Under the pieces are notes generated by a model, which did no database searches, was not told the DNA's origin, and saw only the letters and a program-made list of their open reading frames with translations. This document shows positions 2,541 through 30,181 of a stretch of DNA of 32,000 nt, one piece after another (the first letter of the stretch is position 1; every line of letters starts with the position of its first letter). The position numbers were made by a program, and so were the translations under genes. The DNA is from Methanothermobacter thermautotrophicus str. Delta H. Lineage in GTDB: Archaea; Methanobacteriota; Methanobacteria; Methanobacteriales; Methanothermobacteraceae. The stretch lies in contig NC_000916.1 of NCBI RefSeq assembly GCF_000008645.1, forward strand, positions 120,001 through 152,000, in the 5' to 3' direction.

Positions 2541-4481
2541 ATGTTTGAAATAAAATCAAAGGACGGCCTCGGAAGGACGGGGATCCTTAAAACAGAGCAT
2601 GGGACCGTAAGGACACCAGCGCTCATGCCTGTAATACATCCAGGTAAACAGACCATCGATGTTAAGGGCCCCGGAGCCGAGATTGTGATAACGAATGCAT
2701 ACATAATCTACAGAAACCCTGAACTGAGGGAGAGGGCTCTCAGTGATGGAGTTCACAGACTGATAGACTTCGACGGACCCATAATGACGGATTCAGGTTC
2801 ATTCCAGCTATCAGAGTACGGGGACATTGAGGTCGAGAACCCTGAGATAATACGTTTCCAGGATGAGATAGGCACAGACATAGGCACATCACTGGACATA
2901 CCAACACCACCTGGTGTTAGCCACAGGAGGGCCATAGAGGAGGTTGAGGTCACCCTTGAGAGGGCCAGGGAGTCCATTGAGTACAGGGAGAGAATGATGC
3001 TCAATGCCGTTGTACAGGGTTCAACACACCCTGACCTGAGGAGGTACTGCGCATCACGCCTGGCCGAGCTACCGGTGGAGCTCCACCCCATCGGTGCTGT
3101 GGTGCCTCTAATGGAGTCCTACCGCTACAGGGAACTCGTCGACGCCGTACTTTCATCGGTATCTGAGCTCCCACCCTCAAGGCCAAGGCACCTCATGGGG
3201 GCAGGCCACCCAATGCTATTCGCCCTGGCAGTTTCAATGGGGTGCGACCTCTTTGATTCAGCGGCCTACATACTCTACGCAGAGGATGACCGCCTCCTCA
3301 GCACTGAGGGAACATACAAACTTGAGAACCTCCAGGAGATGCCATGTTCCTGCAGTGTCTGCACGGATTACACACCATCAGAGCTCATGGGGATGGACAG
3401 GGAGGAGCGGAGGAACCTGATAGCGGAACACAACCTGCATGTGAGCTTCGCAGAGATAAGGAAGGTCCGCCAGGCAATCCACGACGGAAACCTCATGGAA
3501 CTGGTCGAAGAGCGCTGCAGGGCACACCCCCGCCTCCTTGAGGGGTACAGGCGCATGTCAGAGTACCTTGATCTCATTGAAAAATTTGAGCCCAGGTCCA
3601 AGAGGTCGGCCTTCTTCTACACAGGCCCAGAGTCACTGGGGCGCGTGGAGGTCCACAGACACCTTAAAAGGGTTAAGGAGCACCTCGGGGAAAGATTAGC
3701 CCTCGTGGCCCCATCAAGGAGGCCCTACTCATCCAGCCTCCCCGCCAGGATCGGGGGTTTCAGTTCACTGAGACCCCAGAGTGGGGGACCATGGAGGGTC
3801 GTGGTGGTGGACCTCCCCTTCGGTATAATCCCCCTGGAACTTGACCAGGTATACCCCCTGGCCCAGAGCGATGCCCCGGGTATAATGGACCTTGACGGGG
3901 AGGAGTTCCTTAGGGGCCTTGTCAGGGACCTCATGGATGGAGATGCAATAGTGGACGATGCCCTCTGCAGCGAACTTGGAATTGAACTCCCCTACAAGTA
4001 CATGGGTGAAGTTGAAACCACCGTTGATGACCTGGACCGTGTGAGGATGGTGGCAGACTACCAGTTCGGTATGGGCGCTGGTGAACTCCTCTTCACCGAT
4101 GATGTGAGGATTGAGAGGAGCCGCAACACGGGTAAGATAAGGCACATATATGCAGGGGATGAGCTCATCTGCACCATGAGGGCATCAGATGGTCTCCTGG
4201 TCCTCGGGGCAGAGGGGGCGGTCAGGCTCCACAAGGGAACAGACTACCCTGCCTGGAGGGTGGCAGTAAATGAGGAGTCTGAACCCTTTGCAAGGAAGGG
4301 TAAAAGTGTTTTTGCAAAGTTTATAATAGACTGCGACAATAATATAAGGGCCAACGATGAAGTTTTAATTGTTAATGCTGATGATGAACTTCTGGCCACA
4401 GGCAAGGCACTCCTCTGTGCCGAGGAGATGATGGACCTCAACCATGGCCAGGCAGTTAAAACCAGGAAAGGAGGATTTTAA
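2541..4481 (+). CDS. tgtA: Archaeosine tRNA-guanine transglycosylase (ArcTGT) with C-terminal PUA domain
   Basis: ATG 2541 is preceded by GGAGGA (2531-2536); the 19 extra codons of the ORF-track call (2484) have no support. Motifs 'GRTGILKTEHGTVRTPALMPV' and 'DSGSFQ', Zn-site 'CSCSVC...H', and a PUA-like C-terminus 'KGKSVFAKFIIDCDNNIRANDEVLIV'. Confidence 0.93.
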   Translation: MFEIKSKDGLGRTGILKTEHGTVRTPALMPVIHPGKQTIDVKGPGAEIVITNAYIIYRNPELRERALSDGVHRLIDFDGPIMTDSGSFQLSEYGDIEVENPEIIRFQDEIGTDIGTSLDIPTPPGVSHRRAIEEVEVTLERARESIEYRERMMLNAVVQGSTHPDLRRYCASRLAELPVELHPIGAVVPLMESYRYRELVDAVLSSVSELPPSRPRHLMGAGHPMLFALAVSMGCDLFDSAAYILYAEDDRLLSTEGTYKLENLQEMPCSCSVCTDYTPSELMGMDREERRNLIAEHNLHVSFAEIRKVRQAIHDGNLMELVEERCRAHPRLLEGYRRMSEYLDLIEKFEPRSKRSAFFYTGPESLGRVEVHRHLKRVKEHLGERLALVAPSRRPYSSSLPARIGGFSSLRPQSGGPWRVVVVDLPFGIIPLELDQVYPLAQSDAPGIMDLDGEEFLRGLVRDLMDGDAIVDDALCSELGIELPYKYMGEVETTVDDLDRVRMVADYQFGMGAGELLFTDDVRIERSRNTGKIRHIYAGDELICTMRASDGLLVLGAEGAVRLHKGTDYPAWRVAVNEESEPFARKGKSVFAKFIIDCDNNIRANDEVLIVNADDELLATGKALLCAEEMMDLNHGQAVKTRKGGF

Positions 4482-5590: not shown

Positions 5591-6616
5591 TTGAGGGTAA
5601 TTATAGATGCATCGAACGTGGCCCATTCAAGGAAGAACGATGAGGAGAAGCCATGCATAGAGAACATACTGTCAGCGGCAGAGGAACTTGAGAAACTTGG
5701 CTACGAACCTGTTATAATCGCCGATGCATCCCTGCGACATGAGATAGATGATAAGGAGCAGTTCAGGAAGCTCCTTGAGGAGGGTAAATTCCAGCAGGTC
5801 CCCTCAGGTACCAGTGCCGACCACTTCATACTGAAGATGGCTGAGGAGGAGGATGCCAAGATACTCTCAAATGATGTTTTCAGGGACTACAAGGACGAAT
5901 TCCAGGATATAAACAGCAGGAGAATACCCTACACCTTCAGGGAGGATAAGATTCTGATAGGGACCTCCGGGAAACCAAAGAAGGTCAAGAATATACTTCA
6001 GAAGATATGCAATGAGGCCCTCAGGGAATTTGAGAGGAAGAGGATCGACGCATATAAGGTTAAAAGGGGCAAGAAACTCAGCGGTATAGCCATAGCAAAG
6101 GAGGCAATAGACAGAATAAGCAGGAGTCAGGAGGAGGGTCTCGAACCCAGACTTGAGGGCATATTCATGAAGCTACCCCTCTTCGAAAGGTTCATGAGCA
6201 TGGTTGAGGAGGTTGAGAGGACCAGCAACTACATAATATTCGTCCTTGTTCATCCAAAGGATTACCGTGATGCTGTGAAGTACGCCGGGAACATCGCAGT
6301 CACCGTCGGCGACAGGCTGAAACTGGAACACGCCCCCCTGGTGGCTGTCAGGAATGATCTCTTCCTCAAACCAGGCACCTTTGAGCTCAACATAATGTAC
6401 TCGGAGGATGTCATGGAGGAGGCCCCCTACAATGTTAACATAACCATAAATGATCATGATTACAGCTTCGTTAAGAAGAACTCAAGGAACATAGCGAGCA
6501 CCCTCGCGGCAAGGATAGGTTCATGGAGATTCCCCATAGTGTCTGTTAAACCAAGCATGCTCCTTGAGAAGCCAGGGGAGTTTGAGGTAGTCCTGGAGAA
6601 GGGAGGCAATGATTGA
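5591..6616 (+). CDS. NYN / Zc3h12a-like (PIN-like) ribonuclease domain protein with an unassigned ~200-aa C-terminal region
   Basis: TTG 5591 is preceded by AGGTGG (5581-5586). The ORF-track start at 5543 is also TTG but lacks an RBS and would overlap the phosphoesterase tail. N-terminal 'VIIDASNVAH', 'PVIIADASLRHEI', 'SADHFILKMA', 'ILSNDVFRDY' follow the NYN-domain residue order. Confidence 0.65.
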   Translation: MRVIIDASNVAHSRKNDEEKPCIENILSAAEELEKLGYEPVIIADASLRHEIDDKEQFRKLLEEGKFQQVPSGTSADHFILKMAEEEDAKILSNDVFRDYKDEFQDINSRRIPYTFREDKILIGTSGKPKKVKNILQKICNEALREFERKRIDAYKVKRGKKLSGIAIAKEAIDRISRSQEEGLEPRLEGIFMKLPLFERFMSMVEEVERTSNYIIFVLVHPKDYRDAVKYAGNIAVTVGDRLKLEHAPLVAVRNDLFLKPGTFELNIMYSEDVMEEAPYNVNITINDHDYSFVKKNSRNIASTLAARIGSWRFPIVSVKPSMLLEKPGEFEVVLEKGGND

Positions 6617-7821
6617 TGGTCATGGATTATCTGCTGCGGAAGATACTGGGTTTCTTCCTGGGATACAGGGTCCTCAGCATAGGGACCAGGTACATGCCCA
6701 CCAACAGTACAGAGCGCGAATACGTGGAAATGCTAAACTACACCAGAACAATGCTCATAGAGATTGAAAGGGCCCATATAAACACCAGCAACATATTCGA
6801 TAACCTCACAAGGGAGCTGGGGACAGAAAACATACCAGGAAACAGGAAGTTCATTGAAATCAAACCCGCTGATGAGGAGGTCGACGAATACGCCCTCCTG
6901 AGTAACATAATAATGGGAAGTGACCGCTACCTCTACATCGAGATATTCAACGGCGGCCGGATAGTGGATGAATTCGTGGATATCATCGAGAATGAAAATG
7001 GAAAGATAATCGAGAAGAGCTCAAGTGAGGTGCTTGCCAGGTTCCTCTCCAAGAATGACGCCATAAGGGTTGCTATAAAAATTATAGGCGCTGGAAGCAG
7101 GAGAGGGATAAATGTGAGGGCCGCGGCGGGCATGACAGGCGCTGCAGCCATTGAAAGGGCCATAAACCTCAACAGGGAGATAGGGGAGGTCCCGGGTGTC
7201 GGGTTCACAAAGCTTGGGGGTGAATTTGCCATAATATTCACAGGTGAATTTGAAACCCCCACCGGAGCGCCGTCCTACCGTGACAACTACCTCTTCACCG
7301 ACATGATCGACTCCACAGCATTCATAGAGAGGTATGGCCGTGACAGCCTCGTTGAGATAATGAATGACATAAAGGCCTACATGGAGAACGACTGCAAGGG
7401 GAAGATTGAGGGTTACCGTGAGGGTGGAGACGACCTCATAGCCAACTTCCCAACCAAGGACATGGCCCTCAGGGCCGGTATAGATTCTGCATGGCATGCA
7501 ATGGATAACGGCGCAAATATAAGGGTCGGGATTGGCCGCACAAGGAGGGAGGCCGGTGAGAGGGCCCAGCTGGCCGATGAGATAATGCTCTGGAACCCCA
7601 CATCCATCATGGTATTCGATGTTGCAGATGGCCTCTACGGGTACTTCATACCATCACCCTTCACACGGTCAGTCATAGATTTCTTCATGAACAGGAAGTC
7701 TGTGGCCTTCCTCGTGTTTATCTTTGTCTTCGTTGCAACCTTCCTCGGGTGGAACATGGGTCACTGGGAGTTTGGCCTCGTCGCAATCCTGCTTGCTGTT
7801 ATCTATGGGGCCACGGCATGA
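6616..7821 (+). CDS. Membrane-anchored protein with a class III nucleotidyl cyclase / GGDEF-like palm domain (GGDD motif), preceded by a degenerate copy; two C-terminal TM helices
   Basis: ATG 6616 overlaps the upstream TGA (TGATG) and is preceded by GGGAGG (6601-6606). Motifs 'YLFTDMIDSTAF', 'YREGGDDLIANF', 'IRVGIGRT' occur in the order and spacing of cyclase/GGDEF palms. Hydrophobic C-terminus 'VAFLVFIFVFVATFLGW' and 'FGLVAILLAVIYGA'. Confidence 0.55.
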   Translation: MVMDYLLRKILGFFLGYRVLSIGTRYMPTNSTEREYVEMLNYTRTMLIEIERAHINTSNIFDNLTRELGTENIPGNRKFIEIKPADEEVDEYALLSNIIMGSDRYLYIEIFNGGRIVDEFVDIIENENGKIIEKSSSEVLARFLSKNDAIRVAIKIIGAGSRRGINVRAAAGMTGAAAIERAINLNREIGEVPGVGFTKLGGEFAIIFTGEFETPTGAPSYRDNYLFTDMIDSTAFIERYGRDSLVEIMNDIKAYMENDCKGKIEGYREGGDDLIANFPTKDMALRAGIDSAWHAMDNGANIRVGIGRTRREAGERAQLADEIMLWNPTSIMVFDVADGLYGYFIPSPFTRSVIDFFMNRKSVAFLVFIFVFVATFLGWNMGHWEFGLVAILLAVIYGATA

Positions 7822-10395: not shown

Positions 10396-11391
10396 CTACT
10401 CCCCTTTTACTATTTCCTCTTTTATGGCCTCTGCCATCTCCATGGTACTGGCAGTACCCCCAAGGTCCGGTGTCATGATACCCCTCATGAGGGTTTTTTG
10501 GAGTGCTTTTTCTATTTTTTGGGCTTCTTGTTTTTTGTTGAGGTGTTTTAGCATTAGTGTGGTTGTTAGTATCATGGCTGTGGGGTTGGCTATGTTTTTT
10601 CCTGCGATTTGGGGTGCTGATCCGTGTACTGGTTCGAATAGTGCGTTTTTTTCTCCTATGTTTGCTGATGGTGCGAGTCCGAGTCCTCCGATGAGTCCTG
10701 CGGCTTCGTCTGATAGTATGTCTCCGAATAGGTTGGTTGTGACGATGGTCTGGAATTCCTGGGGCTGGGTTATGAGGTACATTGCTGTGGCGTCAACGTA
10801 GTAGTCATTGGCCTCCATCTGGGGGTATTCTGATGCCACTTTATAGAATTCGTCTCTGAAGATTCCGTCGGTTTTTTTGAGCACGTTGGCCTTGTGGACT
10901 GCTGTTACCTTTTGCATGCCCTCTTTCTGGGCGTACTGGAAGGCGAATTGGCTGATTCTCCTGGAGGCGGTTCTTGTTATGATTCTTTTTGCAACGGCGC
11001 CCTCAGGGGTGTACTCCTCGTCACCGACATAGAGGTCCTCGGTGTTCTCCCGCACAATAACAAAGTCAAGGTCCGGGTAGAGGCAGGGGACACCTGGCAG
11101 GGACTTAACTGGCCTCAAATTCGCAAAAAGATCCAGCTCACGCCTCAATGTGATTATGGCACTCTTCTGTCCTGGCACAGTCGTCACAGCACCGAAGAGT
11201 GTTGCATCAGCCTTCCTGACAAGCTTCAGGGTTTCCTCCGGCAGTGTGTCGCCGCAGCGCCTGAAGCACTCATTACCTGCCTCTGCATGTGTGAATTCAA
11301 ATTCAATTTCAAGGGCCTGGAGGACGTGAAGGGCTGCCTCCATCACCTCCACTCCGATCCCATCACCGGGTATGACCGTTATCCTGTACAT
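10396..11391 (-). CDS. Beta-decarboxylating dehydrogenase of the isopropylmalate / homoisocitrate / isocitrate dehydrogenase family
   Basis: 331-aa ORF. 'ITVIPGDGIGVEV', 'LRRELDLFANLRP', 'IVRENTEDLY', 'NLFGDILSDEAAGLIGGLGLAPSANIG', 'FEPVHGSAPQIAGKNIANP'. By eye I cannot separate LeuB from AksF-type specificity. Confidence 0.88.
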   Translation of the reverse strand: MYRITVIPGDGIGVEVMEAALHVLQALEIEFEFTHAEAGNECFRRCGDTLPEETLKLVRKADATLFGAVTTVPGQKSAIITLRRELDLFANLRPVKSLPGVPCLYPDLDFVIVRENTEDLYVGDEEYTPEGAVAKRIITRTASRRISQFAFQYAQKEGMQKVTAVHKANVLKKTDGIFRDEFYKVASEYPQMEANDYYVDATAMYLITQPQEFQTIVTTNLFGDILSDEAAGLIGGLGLAPSANIGEKNALFEPVHGSAPQIAGKNIANPTAMILTTTLMLKHLNKKQEAQKIEKALQKTLMRGIMTPDLGGTASTMEMAEAIKEEIVKGE

Positions 11392-11537
11392 TTAAATTCC
11401 TCTTGAAGTGTTCTCATGAAGCTGAATGATCTGCATGGGATAATATTTTAAGGCTGTAATGATAAAAATAGTTTGGAAGCTGGGGGTTTTTATGATGTCT
11501 TCATATTCCCTTTTATGTGTCATGGGGACGGGATTTT

Positions 11538-13126: not shown

Positions 13127-14104
13127 TTGAAGGTAAGTATAATTGGGTCAACGGGACGTGTTGGAAGGGCAACGGCCCTCTGTCTTGCAGAGGAGGAGGC
13201 TGTGAAGACCCTCCACCTCATCTCAAGGAAGGAGAGTCTTGAACAGAACCTCGGCGAGGTCCTTGATATGAGCGACGCCCTCGCAGCCAAGGGTGTTTCA
13301 GTCAAGCTGGAAAACTCTGCAGACATTGAAAACGTCTACGGTTCAAGGATAGTGGTGATAACTGCGGGTGTCCCCAGAACGGCTGATATGGACAGGGATG
13401 ATCTTGCATTTAAGAACGGCAGGATCGTTGCAGATTATGCAAGGCAGATCGCAAGATTCGCCCCGGATTCAATTATACTGGTTGTTACAAACCCTGTGGA
13501 TGTGATGACCTATGTTGCCCTCAGGTATTCGGGTTTTCACCCCAGCAGGGTCTTCGGCCTTGGAAACCACCTGGACTCCCTGAGGCTCAAGAACTACATG
13601 GCAAGGCACTTCAATGTCCATGTGAGTGAGGTTCACACCAGGGTTATAGGTCAGCACGGTCCCTACATGGTCCCACTCATAAGTTCAACCTCCATAGGGG
13701 GCATACCCATAGAGCACTATGCCCGGAGGGACTACTTCTCAGGTTACAAGAAGTTTGACCTCAAAAAGACCATAGACAAGGTCATCCATGCAGGGAGCAA
13801 CATCATAAGCAGGAAGGGGGCCACCGAGTATGGACCGGCCTTTGCAATATCCAACATAGTCACCACCATCCTGAATGATGAACGCAGGATACTCACGGTT
13901 TCAACCCTCATGGAGGGTGAAATCGATGGTATAAGGGATGTTTGCCTCGGAGTACCTGTTAAACTGGGTAAGAACGGCATTGAGGGGGTTGTACCTGTGC
14001 TGATGGATCGTGATGAAAGGGAGGCATTCAGGGAAGCCGCCAACCATGTTAGAGACTCCACCAGGAGGGTTATGGAGTTTCTTGATGAGGAACTTCCACT
14101 ATAG
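13127..14104 (+). CDS. mdh: Malate dehydrogenase (LDH-like family)
   Basis: TTG 13127 lies 6 nt after AGGAGGA (13114-13120). 'MKVSIIGSTGRVGRATA', 'VVITAGVPR', 'LVVTNPVDVMTY', 'VIGQHG'. Confidence 0.88.
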   Translation: MKVSIIGSTGRVGRATALCLAEEEAVKTLHLISRKESLEQNLGEVLDMSDALAAKGVSVKLENSADIENVYGSRIVVITAGVPRTADMDRDDLAFKNGRIVADYARQIARFAPDSIILVVTNPVDVMTYVALRYSGFHPSRVFGLGNHLDSLRLKNYMARHFNVHVSEVHTRVIGQHGPYMVPLISSTSIGGIPIEHYARRDYFSGYKKFDLKKTIDKVIHAGSNIISRKGATEYGPAFAISNIVTTILNDERRILTVSTLMEGEIDGIRDVCLGVPVKLGKNGIEGVVPVLMDRDEREAFREAANHVRDSTRRVMEFLDEELPL

Positions 14105-14322
14105 TCCGGTTCAGTGTGATGGGGTGAAGGGTTTACCATGGCCGGACCTTCAGTGTGCATTCAACCTCCCTGAGGTCATTTCCTTCCATCTTTCAGTAAC
14201 CCCATGGAAACTTTTATATACTTGTTCAATTATAAGTTAGTTCAAGACCTTATTTCTGAACATTGTGCACCTGATTTCCTGCAGGGTTCAGGGTTCAGAA
14301 ACAACCGGCAGACATCTTCCGG

Positions 14323-14333
14323 TATATTTATAT
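14323..14333 (+). promoter_or_regulatory. TATA-box-like element upstream of pdxT
   Basis: TATATTTATAT lies ~50 nt upstream of ATG 14383, which has the RBS AAAGGAGA. Position is compatible with an archaeal promoter and a short leader. Confidence 0.4.
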
Positions 14334-14382
14334 GGTCACATCATGAAAAAGGTAACCAGAAAAAATTCTCAAAGGAGACACC

Positions 14383-14961
14383 ATGATAAGGATAGGTATT
14401 CTTGCTCTTCAGGGAGATGTATCCGAACACCTCGAGATGACCAGAAGGACAGTCGAAGAGATGGGCATAGATGCAGAGGTTGTGAGGGTCAGGACAGCAG
14501 AGGAAGCCTCCACAGTCGATGCAATAATAATATCCGGCGGCGAGAGTACGGTAATAGGTAGGCTGATGGAGGAGACAGGGATAAAGGACGTCATAATCCG
14601 CGAAAAGAAACCTGTGATGGGCACATGTGCCGGCATGGTGCTCCTTGCAGATGAAACAGATTATGAACAGCCCCTTCTGGGACTCATAGATATGAAGGTT
14701 AAGAGAAACGCCTTTGGAAGACAGAGAGACTCCTTTGAAGATGAGATCGATATACTTGGAAGGAAATTTCATGGAATATTCATAAGGGCGCCGGCTGTCC
14801 TTGAAGTGGGAGAGGGAGTTGAGGTTCTCTCAGAACTCGATGATATGATAATCGCAGTAAAGGACGGCTGCAACCTCGCACTGGCCTTTCACCCTGAACT
14901 CGGAGAGGACACAGGACTCCATGAATACTTTATAAAGGAGGTATTGAATTGTGTGGAATAG
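14383..14961 (+). CDS. pdxT: Pyridoxal 5'-phosphate synthase glutaminase subunit
   Basis: 'IGILALQGDVSEH', 'IIISGGESTV', 'PVMGTCAGMVLLA', 'LALAFHPEL' (class I GATase triad context). Confidence 0.9.
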   Translation: MIRIGILALQGDVSEHLEMTRRTVEEMGIDAEVVRVRTAEEASTVDAIIISGGESTVIGRLMEETGIKDVIIREKKPVMGTCAGMVLLADETDYEQPLLGLIDMKVKRNAFGRQRDSFEDEIDILGRKFHGIFIRAPAVLEVGEGVEVLSELDDMIIAVKDGCNLALAFHPELGEDTGLHEYFIKEVLNCVE

Positions 14962-15866
14962 CGGGAGTGGTCTACAAGGATGGTAAACTGCACTCAGTCG
15001 GGGCAGACATGACAAGGATGCTCCATGCACTGCAGCACAGGGGACCAGACTCAGCAGGATTCGCGATATATGGAGGTCTTGGGCTTGAAGAAAACGATTA
15101 CCTCCTTAACATAGAGGTTAAGGATAAACCAGGACTTCTTGACATGGTTAAGGAAACAGTTGAACTTGTAAGCCCCATAGGATCAGATGAGGTCATACCA
15201 TCAGTTGAGAACCACATAATCTACCGGTGCAGGATAACCCTGGAATCATTCTCACAGCTTAAACCACTCATAATGGATATAGACAGCATAGATGACGTTA
15301 TAGTACTGAACGGTAGCCACTCATTTGAGATGATAAAGGATGTGGGTTCGGTTCTTGAGATAGCAGACCGCTACGACACCTGGTCAAAGAAGGGCACCCA
15401 TGCCATAGGCCACACAAGGTTCTCAACAGAAAGTATAGTTGACAGGTACCATGCCCACCCATTCCAGAGCTACATCATCCCCGACATAACCGTCGTCCAC
15501 AATGGCCAGATAACAAACTACTGGAAGATAAGGGAGCCGCTGGAGCGCAAGGGCCACATATTCGAAACAAACAACGACACAGAGTGCATAGTCCACTACG
15601 TGGCAGATAAACTGGCATCAGGTTACAGCCTCGAGGAAGCCCTTGAACAGTCAGTAAAGGACATGGATGGCCCCTTCTCATACATAGTGGGAACACCCCA
15701 GGGTGTTGGAATAGCCAAGGACCAGCTTGGACTGAGGCCAGGGGTCATGGCAGAGAATGATGAGGTCTTCGCAGTCGCATCAGAGGAGGTCTCCCTCAGG
15801 GAGGTCATGGACACAAGTGAGGTTGAACAGATATCCCCTGGAGAGGTAAGGGTCTACGAGATATGA
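14949..15866 (+). CDS. Glutamate synthase amidotransferase-domain protein (class II/Ntn glutamine amidotransferase, archaeal split GOGAT)
   Basis: The TTG start gives 'MCGIAGVV' (N-terminal nucleophile Cys). 'GHTRFST', 'HNGQITNY', 'NDTE'. Overlaps the pdxT end by 13 nt. Confidence 0.85.
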   Translation: MCGIAGVVYKDGKLHSVGADMTRMLHALQHRGPDSAGFAIYGGLGLEENDYLLNIEVKDKPGLLDMVKETVELVSPIGSDEVIPSVENHIIYRCRITLESFSQLKPLIMDIDSIDDVIVLNGSHSFEMIKDVGSVLEIADRYDTWSKKGTHAIGHTRFSTESIVDRYHAHPFQSYIIPDITVVHNGQITNYWKIREPLERKGHIFETNNDTECIVHYVADKLASGYSLEEALEQSVKDMDGPFSYIVGTPQGVGIAKDQLGLRPGVMAENDEVFAVASEEVSLREVMDTSEVEQISPGEVRVYEI

Positions 15867-15876
15867 GGGTGATACC

Positions 15877-16566
15877 ATGAGGGAAGCGGTAATTGATGCA
15901 GGATCAAAAACCCCGAGGGAGGTTAACAGGGCAATAAAATCCCTTGCAGCCGACCACGACAGGATAGTCGTTAAAAACCCCAACGCAATGCACTATATAG
16001 GCGCAGGTCTTACAGGGGACGTTGAACTCATAATAGATGGCTCAGCAGGATACTTCGCAGCCACCATGATCCACGGCCCAAGGGTCAGGATAAATGGTAA
16101 CGCAGGGTGGTTCCCTGCAGACAACATGACAGAGGGTGAAGTGGTGGTGGATGGCTCAGCAGGTGACGGCGTGGGTCAGGGAATCTACGGGGGAACCGTG
16201 GTTGTTAAAAAAAGCGCCGGTTCAAGAACAGGCGAGATAATGAAAAATGGGACCATAATCATAGGCGGGAATTCAGGTTTCATGACAGGCCTCTTCATGA
16301 TGGGCGGCCGCATAATAGTACTCGGCGACCTCGCAGAGGATGCAGGTGAATCCATCATAAGGGGAACCATCTATGTCAGGGGCGAAATAAAGAGCCTCGG
16401 GAAGAACGCCAGGGTTGAGGATATAACCCCCGAGGATGAGAAGGAACTGAGGGAAACACTCACCGGTTACGGATTTAACCTTGATGATGAAGACTATCAG
16501 GCCTTCAGGAAGATCGTGCCAAGGAGTAAAAGACCATTTTATGGTGAAGAATCGGAGGAAGGATAA
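15877..16566 (+). CDS. Glutamate synthase GXGXG-motif (alpha-subunit C-terminal domain-like) protein
   Basis: Repeated beta-helix G-x-x-G-x-x-x-G units ('IDGSAGYFAA', 'INGNAGWFPA', 'VDGSAGDGVGQG', 'IIGGNSGFMTG', 'VLGDLAEDAGES'). RBS GAGGGTGA. Confidence 0.85.
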   Translation: MREAVIDAGSKTPREVNRAIKSLAADHDRIVVKNPNAMHYIGAGLTGDVELIIDGSAGYFAATMIHGPRVRINGNAGWFPADNMTEGEVVVDGSAGDGVGQGIYGGTVVVKKSAGSRTGEIMKNGTIIIGGNSGFMTGLFMMGGRIIVLGDLAEDAGESIIRGTIYVRGEIKSLGKNARVEDITPEDEKELRETLTGYGFNLDDEDYQAFRKIVPRSKRPFYGEESEEG

Positions 16567-25101: not shown

Positions 25102-26379
25102 TTATTTGGATGATTCCAGTACATCCAGAAGGGCGTGTGAGATGTCCCTGAAACTGTAACCCTCACCAGCAAGGCTCTCAAGGATTTCAGAGTCACTGTA
25201 AGTCTTTGATTCCAGGTTCCTCCTGAGGATCTCCCTGAGGTCCATCTCATATCCCCTCCTTATCTCCTCAGGGGAGGGCATGTTGCTCTGCTTTATCCTC
25301 TTACCTGTGAATGACTGGATCCTTCTCAGGCGGTGAACCTCACTTCCAACGACGAGGGTGAAGGACTTCCCGCTTGAACCGGCTCGCCCTGTACGGCCTA
25401 TACGGTGAACGTAGTACTCGTTCTCAAAGGGCAGGTCATAGTTCACAACGGCCTCGACATCGGGTACGTGAATACCACGGGCAGCAACATCCGTTGCAAC
25501 AAGGAGACTGAAATCTCCCCTTCTGAATCTCTCCATGACACGCTCACGCTTTGACTGTGAAAGATCACCGTGGATCTCATCTGCAGAGTAACCCATACGG
25601 TTCAGCTGCCTTCTCAACCTCTGGACCCTTCTCTTGGTGTTACAGAATATGAGTCCCATCCTGATATTGTTTGATGAGAGTATCCAGTCGAGGAGCTCAA
25701 CCTTATCCTCCTCCCTGGTTTTGAAGTAGAACTCATCTATCTTGGGGCTGTGCTTCTTCTCCACACGCATAACCTGGGGGTTCCTCATGTACTTCCTTGC
25801 AATCCTGAGTATGGGCTTTGAAACCGTTGCAGAGAAGAGCATGGTCTGCCTTCTCTCAGGTACATGGGATAGTATACGCTCTATGTCATCAATGAATCCC
25901 ATGTTCAGCATTTCATCTGCCTCATCAAGGACAACGGTGGATATACCTCCCAGATCAACGGTCCCCCTCTCGATGTGGTCTATCAGTCTACCAGGGGTTG
26001 CAACGATGACATGAACCCCCCTCCTTAGCTGTGCTATCTGGTTACCGATACTCTGACCACCATAGACCGCGAGGACCTTCACCTTCATGTATTTACCTAT
26101 CCTCTTGATCTCCTCTGAGACCTGGAGACAGAGCTCGCGTGTCGGACAGATTATGAGGGCCTGGGGCACCCTCTCGGCTTCAAGGTTCTCAAGTACGGGT
26201 ATGGCGAATGCAGCTGTTTTTCCGGTCCCTGTCTGGGCCTCACCAACAACGTCCATACCGTCAAGTGTAACAGGTAGTGTAAGTGCCTGGATTGGAGTTG
26301 TGCTCTCAAATCCCATATCATCAAGGGCCCTGTTTATATCCCCTGAGATATCAAACTCACTAAATTCTAATCCTTTCAT
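25102..26379 (-). CDS. DEAD-box ATP-dependent RNA helicase
   Basis: Q-motif context 'FESTTPIQ', 'AQTGTGKT', 'PTRELC', 'VLDEADEM', 'SAT', 'HRIGRTGRAG'. RBS AAGGAAG. Confidence 0.93.
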   Translation of the reverse strand: MKGLEFSEFDISGDINRALDDMGFESTTPIQALTLPVTLDGMDVVGEAQTGTGKTAAFAIPVLENLEAERVPQALIICPTRELCLQVSEEIKRIGKYMKVKVLAVYGGQSIGNQIAQLRRGVHVIVATPGRLIDHIERGTVDLGGISTVVLDEADEMLNMGFIDDIERILSHVPERRQTMLFSATVSKPILRIARKYMRNPQVMRVEKKHSPKIDEFYFKTREEDKVELLDWILSSNNIRMGLIFCNTKRRVQRLRRQLNRMGYSADEIHGDLSQSKRERVMERFRRGDFSLLVATDVAARGIHVPDVEAVVNYDLPFENEYYVHRIGRTGRAGSSGKSFTLVVGSEVHRLRRIQSFTGKRIKQSNMPSPEEIRRGYEMDLREILRRNLESKTYSDSEILESLAGEGYSFRDISHALLDVLESSK

Positions 26380-26529: not shown

Positions 26530-26563
26530 CTGTTGGTTTTTTCATCCGTGAGGTGTTCCTGGA

Positions 26564-26689
26564 GTTGTCTGGGTGGTGTATTCTTTTGTTTGTGGTGTTT
26601 TTTGGGGCTGGTCGCTGTTGTCTGGGTGGTGTATTCTTTTGTTTCCGGTGTTTTTGGCTGCTCTCGAGCGGTGCTGTATTCTTCTGTTT
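26564..26689. repeat. Tandem direct repeat, 53-nt period, 2 full copies plus 1 partial copy, strongly G+T-rich on the plus strand
   Basis: The 28-mer gttgtctgggtggtgtattcttttgttt is identical at 26564-26591 and 26617-26644. Both copies are followed by ggtg-T5/6-gg-ctg. A degenerate third copy, gtgctgtattcttctgttt, lies at 26671-26689. Confidence 0.85.
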
Positions 26690-26693
26690 CTCT

Positions 26694-27710
26694 TTAGACC
26701 ACCCGGGGTATCCGGTCATCCAGGAGGGGCCTGATCACCCGTAGTGGTGTTACTATCATGTTTATCATCTCATCATGCTCCTCAACCGGGACCCTCCTTA
26801 TTATCTGGAGTTCATCAACGGTTGTTGCAAGGGGTGTATCCTCATCTATTGCACCCTGACCCCTGAGTTCAGATATCTCCCTGTCACCGTAGCCTCCACC
26901 CTTACCGAGACGGTTTCCCTGAAGGTCAACAGCCACGGATCCCTCCACAACAAGGTCAACCTGAGGGAACTCCCTGATGGGTGAACCGTACATGTAGGCA
27001 CCCCCTATCGTTGACGCGGCTTCAGCATCAGGTACATCACCCCCTATGAGGAGGTAGCCATCCTTTATCTTTGGGGTGGGCATTATGAGGTCCTTCCCGG
27101 CCTCAAGCACAAGTCTTCTAACCGGGCTCTGGGCCGAGTCAGGGGAGCAGAACACTACACCAGCCCTCTCCCATTCAACTGTCCTCGAAAGCCGCTTCGC
27201 AGCATCAAAAGAACCCTTAAAGTCTGGTATTCGTCCATGGGGCCTCTTACTGACACCCTTCTCCACGAGGAGATCCCAGATGTGGTACTCAACCAAGCGT
27301 TCTCCTCCATCATCGACCTTCCTGGTCCTGATGACACGTGTCCTGGCAATGGCATCAAGGATCCTTAAATGCCCCAGCGGGTAACCCACCAGGAGATCCA
27401 CTGCCAGGGGAAGCCAGAGCACCTTTGAAAGGTTCGTCAGAATCACCTGCCAGGGCTGAAGATCACCCTCCGCTGAGACAACCATAAGGCCCTGCATCCT
27501 CTTACCAGGGGTTCCGCCATGATATTCCAGGTAGCTGAAGTATATAAGTGTTATTAATGCAAGGAGGGGCAGCCAGTAGCTGTAGATGCTGAACAGGTTA
27601 AGGAGCAGCACGGCAGGGTAGACAGCCACCGTGAGGATGTACATTATTGCGGTGACAATCAGAAAGTCCACGATGAATGCATATAACCTCTCTTTCCATA
27701 ACTCAACCAT
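26694..27710 (-). CDS. Fusion protein: N-terminal RDD-family membrane domain + C-terminal 5-formyltetrahydrofolate cyclo-ligase-family domain
   Basis: Strong RBS AAGGAGGGG. N-terminal TM helices with 'GGTPGKRMQGLMVV' (RDD-family-like). The C-terminal half has 'GVVFCSPDSAQ', 'LIMPTPKI' and 'RLGKGGGYGDRE' (the GKGGGYYD-type motif of the MTHFS family). Confidence 0.7.
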   Translation of the reverse strand: MVELWKERLYAFIVDFLIVTAIMYILTVAVYPAVLLLNLFSIYSYWLPLLALITLIYFSYLEYHGGTPGKRMQGLMVVSAEGDLQPWQVILTNLSKVLWLPLAVDLLVGYPLGHLRILDAIARTRVIRTRKVDDGGERLVEYHIWDLLVEKGVSKRPHGRIPDFKGSFDAAKRLSRTVEWERAGVVFCSPDSAQSPVRRLVLEAGKDLIMPTPKIKDGYLLIGGDVPDAEAASTIGGAYMYGSPIREFPQVDLVVEGSVAVDLQGNRLGKGGGYGDREISELRGQGAIDEDTPLATTVDELQIIRRVPVEEHDEMINMIVTPLRVIRPLLDDRIPRVV

Positions 27711-29107: not shown

Positions 29108-29491
29108 ATGGCAATCTGGCAAGGTAAATCAATGAAAAAACCCAGTGGCGGAAGAGCCAAGATGAATCGTGGTAAAAGGAAGTACGAACTTGGAAGGGAG
29201 CCTGCTGAGACAAAGATCGGTGACAGGCGTGTAAGGCTGATAAGGACACGCGGAGGTAACACCAAGGTCAGGCTCGCTTCAGATACAAGGATAAACGTTG
29301 TTGACCCTGAAACCGGTAAGGTTGAAATTGCAGAGATAAGGAACGTTGTTGAGAACACAGCGAACCCCCACTTCGTAAGGAGGAACATCATAACCAGGGG
29401 TGCTGTCGTTGAGACAAACCTCGGGAACGTCAGGGTCACATCAAGGCCAGGTCAGGACGGTGTCATAAACGGAGTCCTGATCAGGGAATAA
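29108..29491 (+). CDS. rps8e: 30S ribosomal protein S8e
   Basis: '[16 protein letters not shown]...[16 protein letters not shown]...[11 protein letters not shown]...[18 protein letters not shown]'. Confidence 0.93.
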
Positions 29492-29509: not shown

Positions 29510-30181
29510 GTGTCCCAGTTGTCTAAGGTGGAGGATGAGATACTCTCCCAGGTGAAAAGGTTCCTGAAACACATAAACAGTAACCTCCCTGAGGGTATGG
29601 AACTGGAATTTGAGGGCTTCTACCGCAGGGGCTTTTTCGTAACAAAGAAGCGATACGCCCTCATAGAGGATGACACAATAGTTGCAAAGGGTCTTGAACT
29701 TGTAAGGCGTGACTGGGCACCAATAGCTAAAAAAACCCAGCGAAAGGTTCTTATGGCCATCCTCCGCGATGGATCTCCTGAGAAGGCAAGGGAGATAATA
29801 AGGGAAGTCGTGGGGCGCATAAGACGGGGTGACGTGGAACTCGATGACCTGGTGATACACACCCAGATCACAAGGGACCTCTCTGAGTACAAACAGATAG
29901 GTCCCCATGTCATCGCTGCAAAGAGATCCCTGGAGAAGGGAAGGCGTGTTGAGAGGGGCTCCATAGTTAGATACATCATCGTGAAGGGAAGGGGCCCCAT
30001 AAGTCAGAGGGCCTTCCCGGTTGAGGACGCAGAAGGCATGGGATACGACCCCGACTATTACATTGAAAACCAGGTGATGGCTGCGGTATCACGCATAATG
30101 TCATCCCTGGGTTACTCCACAGAGGATATGAATTCGTTATCCTCGGGTGAAAGGCAGAGCAGCCTCGACGCGTTCTTTTAA
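29510..30181 (+). CDS. polB: Family B DNA polymerase, stand-alone C-terminal (post-motif-C palm/thumb) fragment
   Basis: GTG start. '[19 protein letters not shown]' (K-x-Y region), '[21 protein letters not shown]', '[10 protein letters not shown]', '[14 protein letters not shown]'. No exonuclease motif, motif A/B or DTD motif is present in this ORF or upstream of it. Confidence 0.85.

Follow-up and report, generated by a model that had tools for sequence, protein, structure and literature searches.

A saturated tract of A- and C-ending codons in the homoisocitrate dehydrogenase gene of Methanothermobacter strain delta-H was found at the 3' end of a ~640-bp block which recurrent gene conversion keeps near-identical between this aksF-type gene (MTH184) and the leuB-type gene MTH1388. 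The tract shares its 3' edge with the block, the strand bias changes sign inside the block and the arrangement is conserved across the genus, while A and C turn over freely in the tract and a flux of G>A changes is still going on in the delta-H lineage. The force acting at the block is persistent, strand-asymmetric and direction-switching, and is not conservation, import or a high-expression codon set. We read the tract as the 3' arm of the conversion block and attribute the directional force within it to recombination itself, a reading to which we give roughly even chances; its link to the polarity of resection and its molecular cause are what we infer. The original prediction knew of no description of such a tract, and our literature searches retrieved none either.

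The features of the window, by which we mean the whole stretch of 32,000 nucleotides that was analysed, are as follows.

10396..11391, minus strand: gene for homoisocitrate dehydrogenase (331 aa), the MTH184 / O26286-type paralogue A (ORF; NCBIfam equivalog match)
10490..11133, minus strand: block of gene conversion (concerted evolution) common to this gene and paralogue B, covering nt 259-902 or codons 87-301 of the gene (the copies differ at 7 of 644 nt)
11113..11148, minus strand: 12 consecutive codons ending in G or T (codons 82-93), what is left of the G/T 5' arm in delta-H (codon reading and run scan)
10750..10992, minus strand: extended, unsaturated A/C-enriched zone, codons 134-214, in the delta-H/L100 clade only (54:13 A/C:G/T)
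10489..10749, minus strand: the A/C-ending tract, saturated over codons 215-301 and forming the 3' arm of the block (A or C at the end of all 85 degenerate codons)
10424..10801, plus strand: antisense ORF of 125 aa, a by-product of the skew (third positions of both frames coincide)

Identity of the gene and its paralogue

The protein of the gene matched the NCBIfam equivalog model AksF2_Meth (NF040626) at 554.2 bits, above the NCBI cut-off of 540, and was exactly matched by AAB84690.1 / WBF06509.1. The gene (hereafter A) lies on CP064324.1 with TPR, argB and argJ genes as its neighbours. Paralogue B is of the leuB type (MTH1388 type) and belongs to the leucine pathway; its protein scored 500.9 bits on AksF2_Meth, which is below the same cut-off, and passed the LEU3_arch subfamily model alone. 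The two types can be told apart by their N-termini, GAVTTVPGQKSA in A and GAAGESAADV in B, and in the delta-H group their C-termini are likewise split into types A and B.

The A/C-ending tract

Codon-by-codon reading of the minus-strand ORF confirmed the tract at its full predicted length. Two of its 87 codons are ATG (codons 273 and 280) and the other 85, all degenerate, end in A (62%) or C (38%), among them (counts following the codons) AAA8, GAA5, CAA4, GGA8, CTA6/CTC6, GCA7/GCC4, ATA5/ATC3, TCA3, ACA4/ACC4 and CCA2/CCC2. The G+C content of the tract is 0.452 compared with 0.499 for the window, with C at 0.38 and G at 0.00 of its third positions. The tract spans the most conserved segment of the protein, as had been claimed.

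If this protein were encoded with the codon usage of 23 other genes of the window, 85/85 would have a probability of 4e-24, and the second-longest A/C run, across every open frame of 120 codons or more in the window, has 20 codons; chance and local codon usage were rejected as causes on these grounds. In a further 21-kb delta-H-type locus, the 17 genes other than Iso_dh had A/C runs of at most 13. A scan of ~80 called genes in 30-codon windows, with a threshold of at least 90% A/C, matched every Methanothermobacter Iso_dh gene, one tenebrarum-like NrdD and one short Methanobacterium FBPase stretch, and no further gene reached this level in the delta-H-type loci (the window, L006, L007, L008 and L011). 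High-expression (translational) codon bias was also rejected, as the bias is confined to part of the gene and has the opposite sign in the 5' arm, and as rps8e (29108..29491, plus strand; third-position A+C 0.55) uses other codons (AGG14, GGT8, GTT6, AAG5), in agreement with what had been noted for it. An A/C-rich tract of the same kind is present in the non-coding DNA of the window at 26530-26700.

The antisense ORF of 125 aa was rejected as a gene, as it had no NCBIfam match and its openness is explained by the absence of A at third positions: the plus strand never carries A there, so TAA and TGA cannot occur and the frame stays open.

The conversion block shared with the leuB-type paralogue

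Paralogue B was taken from the delta-H-type genomes L101 and L102, and the window genome encodes an identical protein, WBF05910.1. Between A and B in delta-H-type genomes only 7 differences were found in nt 259-902, against 82 in nt 1-258 and 46 in nt 903-996, and the identity of the block to the leuB-type paralogue amounts to 98.9-100% over 644 bp. Gene A and L006 also match at 100% between about codons 131 and 301, except for 3-4 bases near codons 195-199. The identity of A and B stops at window position 10489/10490, which is the sharp 3' edge of the A/C tract. The sharp 3' boundary originally described was hence recovered as the end of paralogue identity, although the tract is followed first by ATG (10486-10488) and only then by AGG.

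Within a lineage, A and B share 95-100% of positions in alignment columns ~85-301, and their identity falls to 47-65% outside the block, whereas orthologues from different lineages (A with A or B with B) share 68-93% over columns 101-300, going down to 68-72%. Paralogues are thus closer than orthologues within the block, which has discrete edges and flanks grouping by orthology, as expected of gene conversion. In the tenebrarum clade both the similarity of A and B and the A/C arm continue as far as the stop codon.

One of the two original explanations, a recombination or gene-conversion tract from a homologue with different codon usage, was upheld as to conversion, the block being near-identical to the leuB-type paralogue and the sharp edge marking the end of identity. 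The composition is not owed to a donor with different codon usage: the private regions of paralogue B are unremarkable (A/C:G/T 41:32 N-terminal and 12:16 C-terminal), the bias occurs in both copies across the sampled lineages and the 5' arm is biased in the opposite direction.

Reversal of the bias within the gene

The coding strand is G/T-enriched in the 5' part and A/C-enriched in the 3' part of the gene in 9/9 Methanothermobacter sequences. Over alignment columns 81-135, the A/C:G/T ratios were 23:32 in delta-H, 13:42 in DP, 15:40 in wolfeii, 12:43 in L012 and 4:51 in tenebrarum; eight Methanothermobacter genes ranged from 4:51 to 23:32 in the 5' arm and from 82:12 to 91:3 in the 3' arm. 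The G/T arm is weak in delta-H, with its 12-codon run, and the run of G/T-ending codons reaches 34 in L103. Leucine shows the corresponding swap, being encoded by TTG in the 5' arm (M. tenebrarum) and by CTA/CTC in the 3' arm. The fitted switch point varies by lineage from column 117 to ~200 and is not always at the centre of the block.

Pyrimidine-ending codons have switched more completely in both arms. In the A/C arm 0-3 T are left against 3-12 G in the delta-H-group sequences, with equal counts in two tenebrarum-clade sequences, and in the G/T arm the residual A is at least as frequent as the residual C. As the favoured strand flips inside the gene, the pattern points to a bidirectional DNA transaction and not to one exposed plus strand.

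Ongoing change in the delta-H lineage

The gradual 5' decay of the bias noted originally corresponds to the zone of codons 134-214, where delta-H has an A/C:G/T ratio of 54:13, compared with 33:34 (DP) and 35:34 (wolfeii). Of the polarised changes of the delta-H lineage in codons 134-204, 7-10 are G>A or T>C and 1 is A>G or C>T; the G>A changes include nonsynonymous R>K, V>I and A>T.

In the genes flanking it, delta-H differs from its close relative L100 at ~20% of third positions, symmetrically. Within the tract 9/97 third positions differ, six of them by A<->C transversions, which is the flank rate, and three by transitions, at all of which delta-H has A or C. The wobble sites of the tract therefore swap A<->C at the neutral rate while G and T are excluded, and this is not sequence conservation.

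Distribution among lineages and other skewed domains

To describe the reversal by one value, D was defined as the third-position A+C of the 3' arm minus that of the 5' arm. D was +0.53 to +0.88 in 9/9 Methanothermobacter sequences; among homologues of other genera, one Methanobacterium-like contig had +0.39 and the remaining 69 lay between -0.17 and +0.21, so that the pattern is missing from 69/70 of them, and the Methanobacterium paludis orthologue shows no skew. The A/C arm occurs in each Methanothermobacter lineage of the sample, whichever of the two paralogues represented it, while four same-contig paralogue pairs of other lineages have neither a homogenised block nor skew. The search of genome contigs for relatives gave nothing above 51% identity, and the relatives of at most 64% identity from a metagenome search served as the outgroup set. 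Strains L012-L014 were identical to one another and thus without polymorphism.

L103 has another domain of 5'G/T->3'A/C polarity, which does not follow the coding strand: SNO and GATase6 have a third-position A+C of 0.90 and the adjoining co-oriented MDH has 0.28. The tenebrarum-like genomes carry long A/C patches in genes without a known paralogue, such as NrdD (0.81), UGSC (0.91) and GATase6 (a run of 102), which indicates that paralogue conversion is not necessary for the skew; a protein search for NrdD gave fragments only. The skew is far more intense in the tenebrarum clade than in the delta-H group. In most of these tenebrarum-like patches it is the coding strand that is A/C, so a cause at the level of RNA or translation may still be at work. 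By our own count, 13 of the ~16 skewed gene segments of L099 are A/C-rich on the coding strand regardless of the DNA strand, and the codon repertoire is identical in all A/C patches.

A recombination-linked drive as the proposed mechanism

Correlation and polarity suggest the link to recombination. Bidirectional 5'-3' resection at a break leaves one strand with C-type changes on its 5' side and G-type changes on its 3' side (PMC6786661), and the polarity of the arms in 9/9 Methanothermobacter sequences is this single-switch polarity. Under the proposed mechanism, breaks would arise within the homology block and would undergo 5'->3' resection, after which the surviving or invading 3' strand would be the coding strand upstream of the break and the template strand downstream of it. 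Sites at the 3' edge of the block would nearly always lie downstream of breaks and those at the 5' edge nearly always upstream. Every site that is free to change would then be driven towards G/T on the coding strand of the 5' arm and towards A/C on that of the 3' arm. A model of uniformly distributed breaks would predict a switch point at the centre of the block, and its varying position, like the weakness of the G/T arm in delta-H and the patches in genes without a known paralogue, counts against our reading.

The force itself may take two forms, both of which would render the 3'-ended strand G/T-rich. In the form that we prefer, strand-asymmetric biased gene conversion, G.T mismatches of the heteroduplex would be recognised and destroyed, as by EndoMS/NucS, and A.C mismatches tolerated, so that donor alleles would pass only if they carry A or C on the newly copied strand. 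EndoMS/NucS cleaves G/T, G/G and T/T mismatches and leaves A/C, C/C and A/A uncut (PMC4838380), and it suppresses homeologous recombination (PMC8228993); this non-canonical mismatch repair (PMC4838380, PMC8228993) offers the asymmetry that is required. NucS is present and abundant in Methanobrevibacter smithii, a member of Methanobacteriales (PMC12134362). No compositional effect of this asymmetry in recombination tracts is reported in the EndoMS/NucS literature examined. In the second form, heat-accelerated deamination of exposed overhangs would turn C into U and A into hypoxanthine, against which stands the more complete removal of T than of G from the A/C arm. Repair of the heteroduplex by a G.T-specific thymine glycosylase was rejected on paper, as it yields a GC bias without strand asymmetry.

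More generally, and with considerable doubt, we suggest that conversion in these archaea may be strand-biased and not GC-biased through a G.T-specific nuclease, leaving the 5'G/T->3'A/C signature at recombination hot regions because a different strand is copied on either side of a break, overriding codon usage and replacing amino acids, with the Iso_dh block kept genus-wide by paralogue conversion.

Alternative explanations

A purely mutational origin is unlikely. It would have repeated 3'-overhang or other single-strand exposure at 65 °C deaminate C and A until synonymous sites saturate, with conversion only spreading the result, and so sets the original explanation by strand-specific transitions in a context of recombination. 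Every change it requires is a transition of the right kind, and the polarity is a resection signature (PMC6786661). The contrast of Leu TTG with CTA means that first positions are affected as well, and the strong cases fall in a thermophilic genus, with M. paludis free of skew. Deamination kinetics would also fit the G/T arm, where C is depleted more than A, but not the A/C arm, which in the delta-H group loses T more fully than G (equally in the tenebrarum clade), the reverse of fast C- and slow A-deamination. Judged by general rates, deamination per event multiplied by a plausible break frequency in 640 bp is unlikely to rise at least 50-fold over background, as 85/85 needs, and repair from the sister chromosome would dilute the skew by exposing both strands equally. 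Strand-specific transitions, the other original explanation, were correct in direction, as seen in codons 134-204; a fixed plus strand does not agree with the flip inside the gene, and plain deamination is doubtful in amount and kinetics.

It is quite unlikely that selection on the transcript or its translation is responsible, keeping the A/C arm free of G/U against mRNA folding or for strict Watson-Crick reading by G34/U34 tRNAs, with slow codons in the G/T arm and conversion incidental. The RNA of the tract is indeed far less structured than synonymous recodings at 65 °C (-5.3 vs -22.8 +/- 3.8 kcal/mol, none of 300 recodings being as weak), and the coding-strand preference in L099, the single codon set of all patches and the placement of the tract over the most conserved protein segment are in line with such selection. 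However, the bias ends where the conversion block does and coincides with no structural or domain limit of the protein, the 5' arm is equally conserved yet oppositely biased, and the switch point shifts among lineages. The MDH gene of L103 is G/T-rich throughout beside co-oriented A/C-rich genes, rps8e lacks this codon set, a similar tract lies in non-coding DNA (26530-26700), and 100% over 85 codons is beyond the usual reach of weak codon selection.

Import of the tract, as in the gene-conversion explanation originally offered, from a lineage with A/C-only codons, such as the tenebrarum-like clade with its many patches, followed by copying to the paralogue, is very unlikely: the codon repertoire is identical in the common tenebrarum-like patches and nucleotide identity between delta-H and tenebrarum peaks in the tract (82-87% vs 53-72% just upstream), but a two-letter wobble alphabet alone gives that identity, a near-identical donor is absent and the delta-H tract is as pure or purer (91:3 vs 89:4 and 85:8), has gained zero G/T-ending codons at a normal A<->C rate while the flanks diverged by 20% at third positions since the split from L100, and was extended to codon 134 by G>A steps within the delta-H/L100 clade, with the G/T arm left unexplained.

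Transcription-linked asymmetry was rejected, as exposure of the non-template strand should make the coding strand rich in G/T, contrary to what the tract shows, and as the co-oriented neighbours in L103 have opposite skews. A long hairpin between the G/U-rich and A/C-rich arms was rejected as well: a repeat search gave three nested imperfect pairs, and a full diagonal scan gave none above the compositional background, the best 120-nt diagonals having 0.41-0.47 Watson-Crick pairing spread over many offsets. The window contained no Rfam match to known RNA families and no tRNA.

Comparison with known systems

Concerted evolution by gene conversion is known for instance from the duplicated tuf genes of enterobacteria and the chaperonin subunit genes of archaea. 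The Iso_dh block resembles these paralogues in having an internal block that is near-identical within a genome and diverged between species, flanks that follow orthology and discrete boundaries. It is unlike them in its saturated strand skew that reverses sign within the block, and we know of no description of such a skew for blocks under concerted evolution. GC-biased gene conversion is similar in that a fixation bias linked to recombination mimics selection, both at synonymous sites and at nonsynonymous ones of mildly deleterious effect. Unlike it, the Iso_dh block favours A+C or G+T depending on the strand, with the sign set by position, and the raised G+C that characterises GC-biased conversion is not found (0.45 in the tract vs 0.50 in the window).

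With replication-associated GC/TA skew the pattern shares a keto-versus-amino strand signature in which the more exposed (leading) strand becomes G/T-rich. Replication skew was nevertheless rejected as the cause because the scale is wrong, being hundreds of bases and not a replichore, two unlinked loci are involved and the sign changes within a gene. The single-switch strand-coordinated clusters of yeast have the same polarity, C-type 5' and G-type 3' on one strand, at the kilobase scale; they are scattered mutations of single events caused by an added deaminase or damaging agent (PMC6786661), whereas the Iso_dh block is an evolutionary steady state that involves C/G and A/T sites, is filtered by the protein and is conserved across the genus.

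If our reading holds, a directional evolutionary force operates in archaea that is neither protein selection nor ordinary mutation bias, and it would fix 85/85 synonymous choices and drive conservative amino-acid replacements. A signature legible from sequence alone (G/T then A/C on either strand) would mark where recombination starts, which is testable, as genetic tools exist for the organism. Were conversion strand-biased, skew domains would chart where recombination is initiated in the genomes of archaea. Codon-based predictors of expression or horizontal gene transfer would be expected to misread such tracts, and the leuB/aksF phylogenies of Methanothermobacter to be mosaic. MAG assemblies break inside the identical block or chimerise across it.

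Identity and codon composition of the dehydrogenase gene

The gene that carries the codon-biased tract encodes exactly the protein AAB84690.1 / O26286 (MTH184) of M. thermautotrophicus delta-H, which is also encoded by CP064324.1, a 1.75-Mb Methanothermobacter chromosome, and it passes the NCBI equivalog AksF2_Meth for methanogen homoisocitrate dehydrogenase (554 bits against a cut-off of 540). TPR, argB and argJ genes surround it. Methanothermobacter possesses two paralogues of this enzyme, the window gene (type A) and a type B that lies inside an aconitase large/small-subunit operon and is annotated as 3-isopropylmalate dehydrogenase (MTH1388 / O27441). In a complete delta-H-type genome (L101, 4566-7932) the type-B operon directly adjoins radA and replication protein A genes, which is probably a coincidence. 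The features concerned are:

10396..11391, minus strand: homoisocitrate dehydrogenase gene, type A
10490..11133 (gene nt 259-902): gene-conversion block, near-identity of the A and B genes
10424-10801, plus strand: antisense ORF of 125 aa overlapping the dehydrogenase gene, its openness explained by the skew
10894-11406, plus strand: antisense ORF of 170 aa overlapping the dehydrogenase gene
29108..29491, plus strand: rps8e, third-position A+C 0.55

The original observation of a saturated tract at 10489..10749 (codons 215-301) was confirmed: of its 87 codons 2 are ATG and the other 85 all end in A or C, the codons in use (AAA, GAA, CAA, GGA, CTA/CTC, GCA/GCC, ATA/ATC, TCA, ACA/ACC and CCA/CCC) being in keeping with the list first given. 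Given the same protein and the codon usage of 23 other window genes, this wobble pattern has P = 4e-24. As an empirical null, the second-longest A/C run among all window open frames of at least 120 codons was 20. When about 80 called genes were scanned in 30-codon windows at a threshold of 90% A/C, the only genes other than Iso_dh to reach it were a tenebrarum-like NrdD gene and a short stretch of a Methanobacterium FBPase; no gene besides Iso_dh did so in the delta-H-type loci scanned, and a further 21-kb delta-H-type locus had A/C runs of at most 13 outside Iso_dh. The tract is real and far beyond chance. Its gradual weakening in the 5' direction also held, the bias persisting to codon 134 at 54:13 (codons ending in A or C against G or T, hereafter A/C:G/T). 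As had been noted, rps8e does not use the codon set of the tract (AGG, GGT, GTT and AAG are frequent), which excludes a high-expression codon set.

A conversion block shared by the two paralogues

Between about codon 131 and codon 301 the type-B gene L006, from a metagenome, matches the window gene base for base, save 3-4 bases near codons 195-199, and it diverges at the codon right after 301. Comparison of the window gene with the B-gene DNA of two complete delta-H-type genomes, whose B protein is identical to that of the window genome, gives 7 differences among the 644 positions of gene nt 259-902; nt 1-258 contain 82 differing positions, and nt 903-996 contain 46. The sharp 3' edge of the tract is therefore the end of a gene-conversion block. 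In 20-codon windows across this block A and B are 95-100% identical within one lineage, whereas between lineages the identity of orthologues drops to 68-72%, which marks the block as evolving in concert. Four other genomes with both paralogues on one contig had neither a homogenised block nor the skew.

Many copies of both paralogues in metagenome-assembled genomes (MAGs) are "partial", truncated at contig ends, and one MAG contig (L103, dehydrogenase gene at 6001-7008 with flanks) joins the type-A upstream context (TPR, MDH, SNO, glutamate synthase) to the type-B downstream context (aminotransferase, DMRL synthase, TiaS). Either the assembly is chimeric across the identical block, or A and B have truly crossed over there. 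Evidently the repeat is so long and exact that assemblies break or chimerise at it.

Opposite biases at the two ends of the block

The A/C arm is a feature of both paralogues and of all lineages sampled (delta-H, the close MAG L100, strain DP, M. marburgensis, M. wolfeii, M. tenebrarum and two tenebrarum-like genomes, comparing whichever paralogue was retrieved for each), at A/C:G/T ratios of 82:12 to 91:3 over alignment columns 205-301, and it reaches the stop codon exactly where the A-B similarity does too. The 5' arm has the opposite bias, its A/C:G/T over columns 81-135 being 23:32 in delta-H, where the G/T arm is weak, 13:42 in DP, 15:40 in M. wolfeii, 12:43 in the Methanothermobacter strain L012 and 4:51 in M. 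tenebrarum, whose clade has runs of 31-34 G/T-ending codons there. First codon positions obey the same rule, leucine being written TTG on the 5' side and CTA/CTC on the 3' side. The fitted switch from G/T to A/C lies between column 117 and about 200, depending on the lineage. In third-position A+C the arms differ (3' minus 5') by +0.53 to +0.88 in 9 of 9 Methanothermobacter sequences, by +0.39 in one Methanobacterium-like contig and by -0.17 to +0.21 in 69 other homologues. The weaker pattern was seen at L028 4001-4978 (metagenome contig NPID01002946.1, Methanobacterium-like, GC 0.38), with third-position A+C of 0.34 in the 5' arm and 0.73 in the 3' arm, a 26-codon A/C run in the latter and normal adjacent genes.

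Of the two explanations originally offered, a conversion tract from a differently biased homologue stands as far as conversion goes, as the block is common to A and B. The donor did not supply the composition: the stretches that B does not share with A have ordinary wobble usage (A/C:G/T 41:32 and 12:16), as have its operon neighbours (third-position A+C 0.56-0.58), which rules out inheritance from the paralogue.

An ongoing directional force

Comparison of delta-H with L100 shows changes at about 20% of third positions in the flanking genes, symmetric in direction. The tract has 9 differences among 97 third positions, 6 of them A<->C transversions, which is the flank rate; transitions are nearly absent, delta-H holding A or C wherever they are present. 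Wobble sites can thus switch freely between A and C, whereas G and T are excluded. When the delta-H lineage was polarised with outgroups, codons 134-204 showed 7-10 transitions towards A/C and 1 towards G/T, so that the second explanation originally offered, strand-specific saturation of synonymous transitions, had captured the other half of the matter. Several of these A/C-ward changes replace an amino acid (R>K, V>I, A>T). The directional force persists today and is strong enough for amino-acid change. What emerges is a strand skew that switches sign inside a block under concerted evolution, extends across the genus and is upheld by this force; we know of no description of such a skew in a conversion block.

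Other candidates fell away. A functional nucleotide sequence is excluded since the tract sequence is not conserved, and recent import since the flanks diverged by 20% while no G/T-ending codon accumulated in the tract, and no candidate donor is purer than the delta-H tract. The 125-aa antisense ORF was excluded as a gene, the sign expected from transcription-linked exposure of the non-template strand is opposite to that of the tract, no diagonal exceeded composition for a long hairpin between the arms, and no Rfam family matched.

Skewed domains in the tenebrarum clade

At 1014-4411 of L103, a tenebrarum-clade MAG (GCA_038887835.1), the co-oriented GXGXG, GATase6 and SNO genes have third-position A+C of 0.73, 0.90 and 0.90, one of them with a run of 102 A/C-ending codons, and the co-oriented malate dehydrogenase gene next after has 0.28. 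This 3-kb domain is G/T-rich and then A/C-rich in 5'->3' direction on the DNA, independent of the coding strand, with its switch in an intergenic gap near 3250. As the same polarity appears on whichever strand is read, it is intrinsic to the domain. The window orthologues (13127-16566) retain a faint echo at most (0.51, 0.56, 0.63, 0.63).

Besides, tenebrarum-like genomes have, as seen at L099 972-20671 (GCA_036679325.1), many near-pure A/C patches in unrelated genes: UGSC (0.91), NrdD (codons 20-375 and 650-771), AIRC (0.75), the UbiD N-terminus and the LysRS C-terminus, one patch spanning the borders of the LysRS C-terminus, UGSC and the next ORF. These genes are without known paralogues and most of the patches are A/C-rich on the coding strand, whereas their delta-H-type orthologues in L101 are ordinary. 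The force is thus general and varies in intensity among lineages, and the Iso_dh block is the one domain that the whole genus retains.

Proposed mechanism

A recombination-linked drive is, with moderate confidence, the best explanation. A break with bidirectional 5'->3' resection, in which the 3'-ended surviving strands turn G/T-rich, would leave G/T 5' and A/C 3' on either strand. Resection-derived clusters in yeast carry C-type changes to the left of G-type ones, an experimentally established signature (PMC6786661), and the block has the same order. Repair from the other paralogue would be limited to breaks inside the shared block, so that 3'-edge sites would nearly always lie downstream of the break and 5'-edge sites upstream. 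The A/C arm would then be saturated right up to the homology boundary and stop sharply there, the opposite end of the block would form a G/T arm, and the switch in between would be diffuse and movable, which the lineage-dependent position of the fitted switch matches.

Two routes to such a drive may be envisaged. In biased conversion by synthesis-dependent strand annealing, the downstream heteroduplex would pair a copied donor-type coding strand with the recipient template, and at a transition difference donor A or C on the coding strand would form A.C, donor G or T G.T. Rejection of G.T heteroduplex by the candidate EndoMS/NucS would restrict conversion to A/C-ward changes downstream of the break and to G/T-ward changes upstream of it. 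The mismatches G/T, G/G and T/T are bound and cut by EndoMS/NucS, whereas A/C, C/C and A/A are not (PMC4838380); the enzyme suppresses homeologous recombination (PMC8228993) and is abundant in one Methanobacteriales member (PMC12134362). This specific mismatch discrimination is put forward as a testable hypothesis. The other route would be deamination of C and A on overhangs at 65 C, but its local rate would have to be at least fifty-fold background both for C and for A, whose deamination is much slower, and the A/C arm loses T more completely than G. We prefer biased conversion, as a fixation bias would saturate sites with a modest conversion rate. An RNA- or translation-level cause stays alive, as the tenebrarum-like patches are mostly A/C on the coding strand; the RNA of the tract moreover has almost no structure, with -5.3 kcal/mol at 65 C where synonymous recodings have -22.8 kcal/mol.

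Other observations in the window

A second tract of the same composition, non-coding, lies at 26530-26700 (plus-strand G+T reaching 0.84, the minus strand being A/C-rich), between the stop of the 5-formyl-THF cyclo-ligase/RDD gene (26694..27710, minus strand) and the TATA-like box of the DEAD-box helicase gene (25102..26379, minus strand). It holds the following repeats:

26564-26609, 26617-26662 and 26670-26690: three imperfect direct repeats containing GGTGGTGTATTCTTTTGTTT, spaced by 53 and 45 nt

Just downstream of rps8e, a 223-aa ORF (29510-30181, plus strand) aligns to family-B DNA polymerase in its C-terminal part alone (positions 243-452 of the 453-position profile), which fits the split PolB known in M. 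thermautotrophicus.
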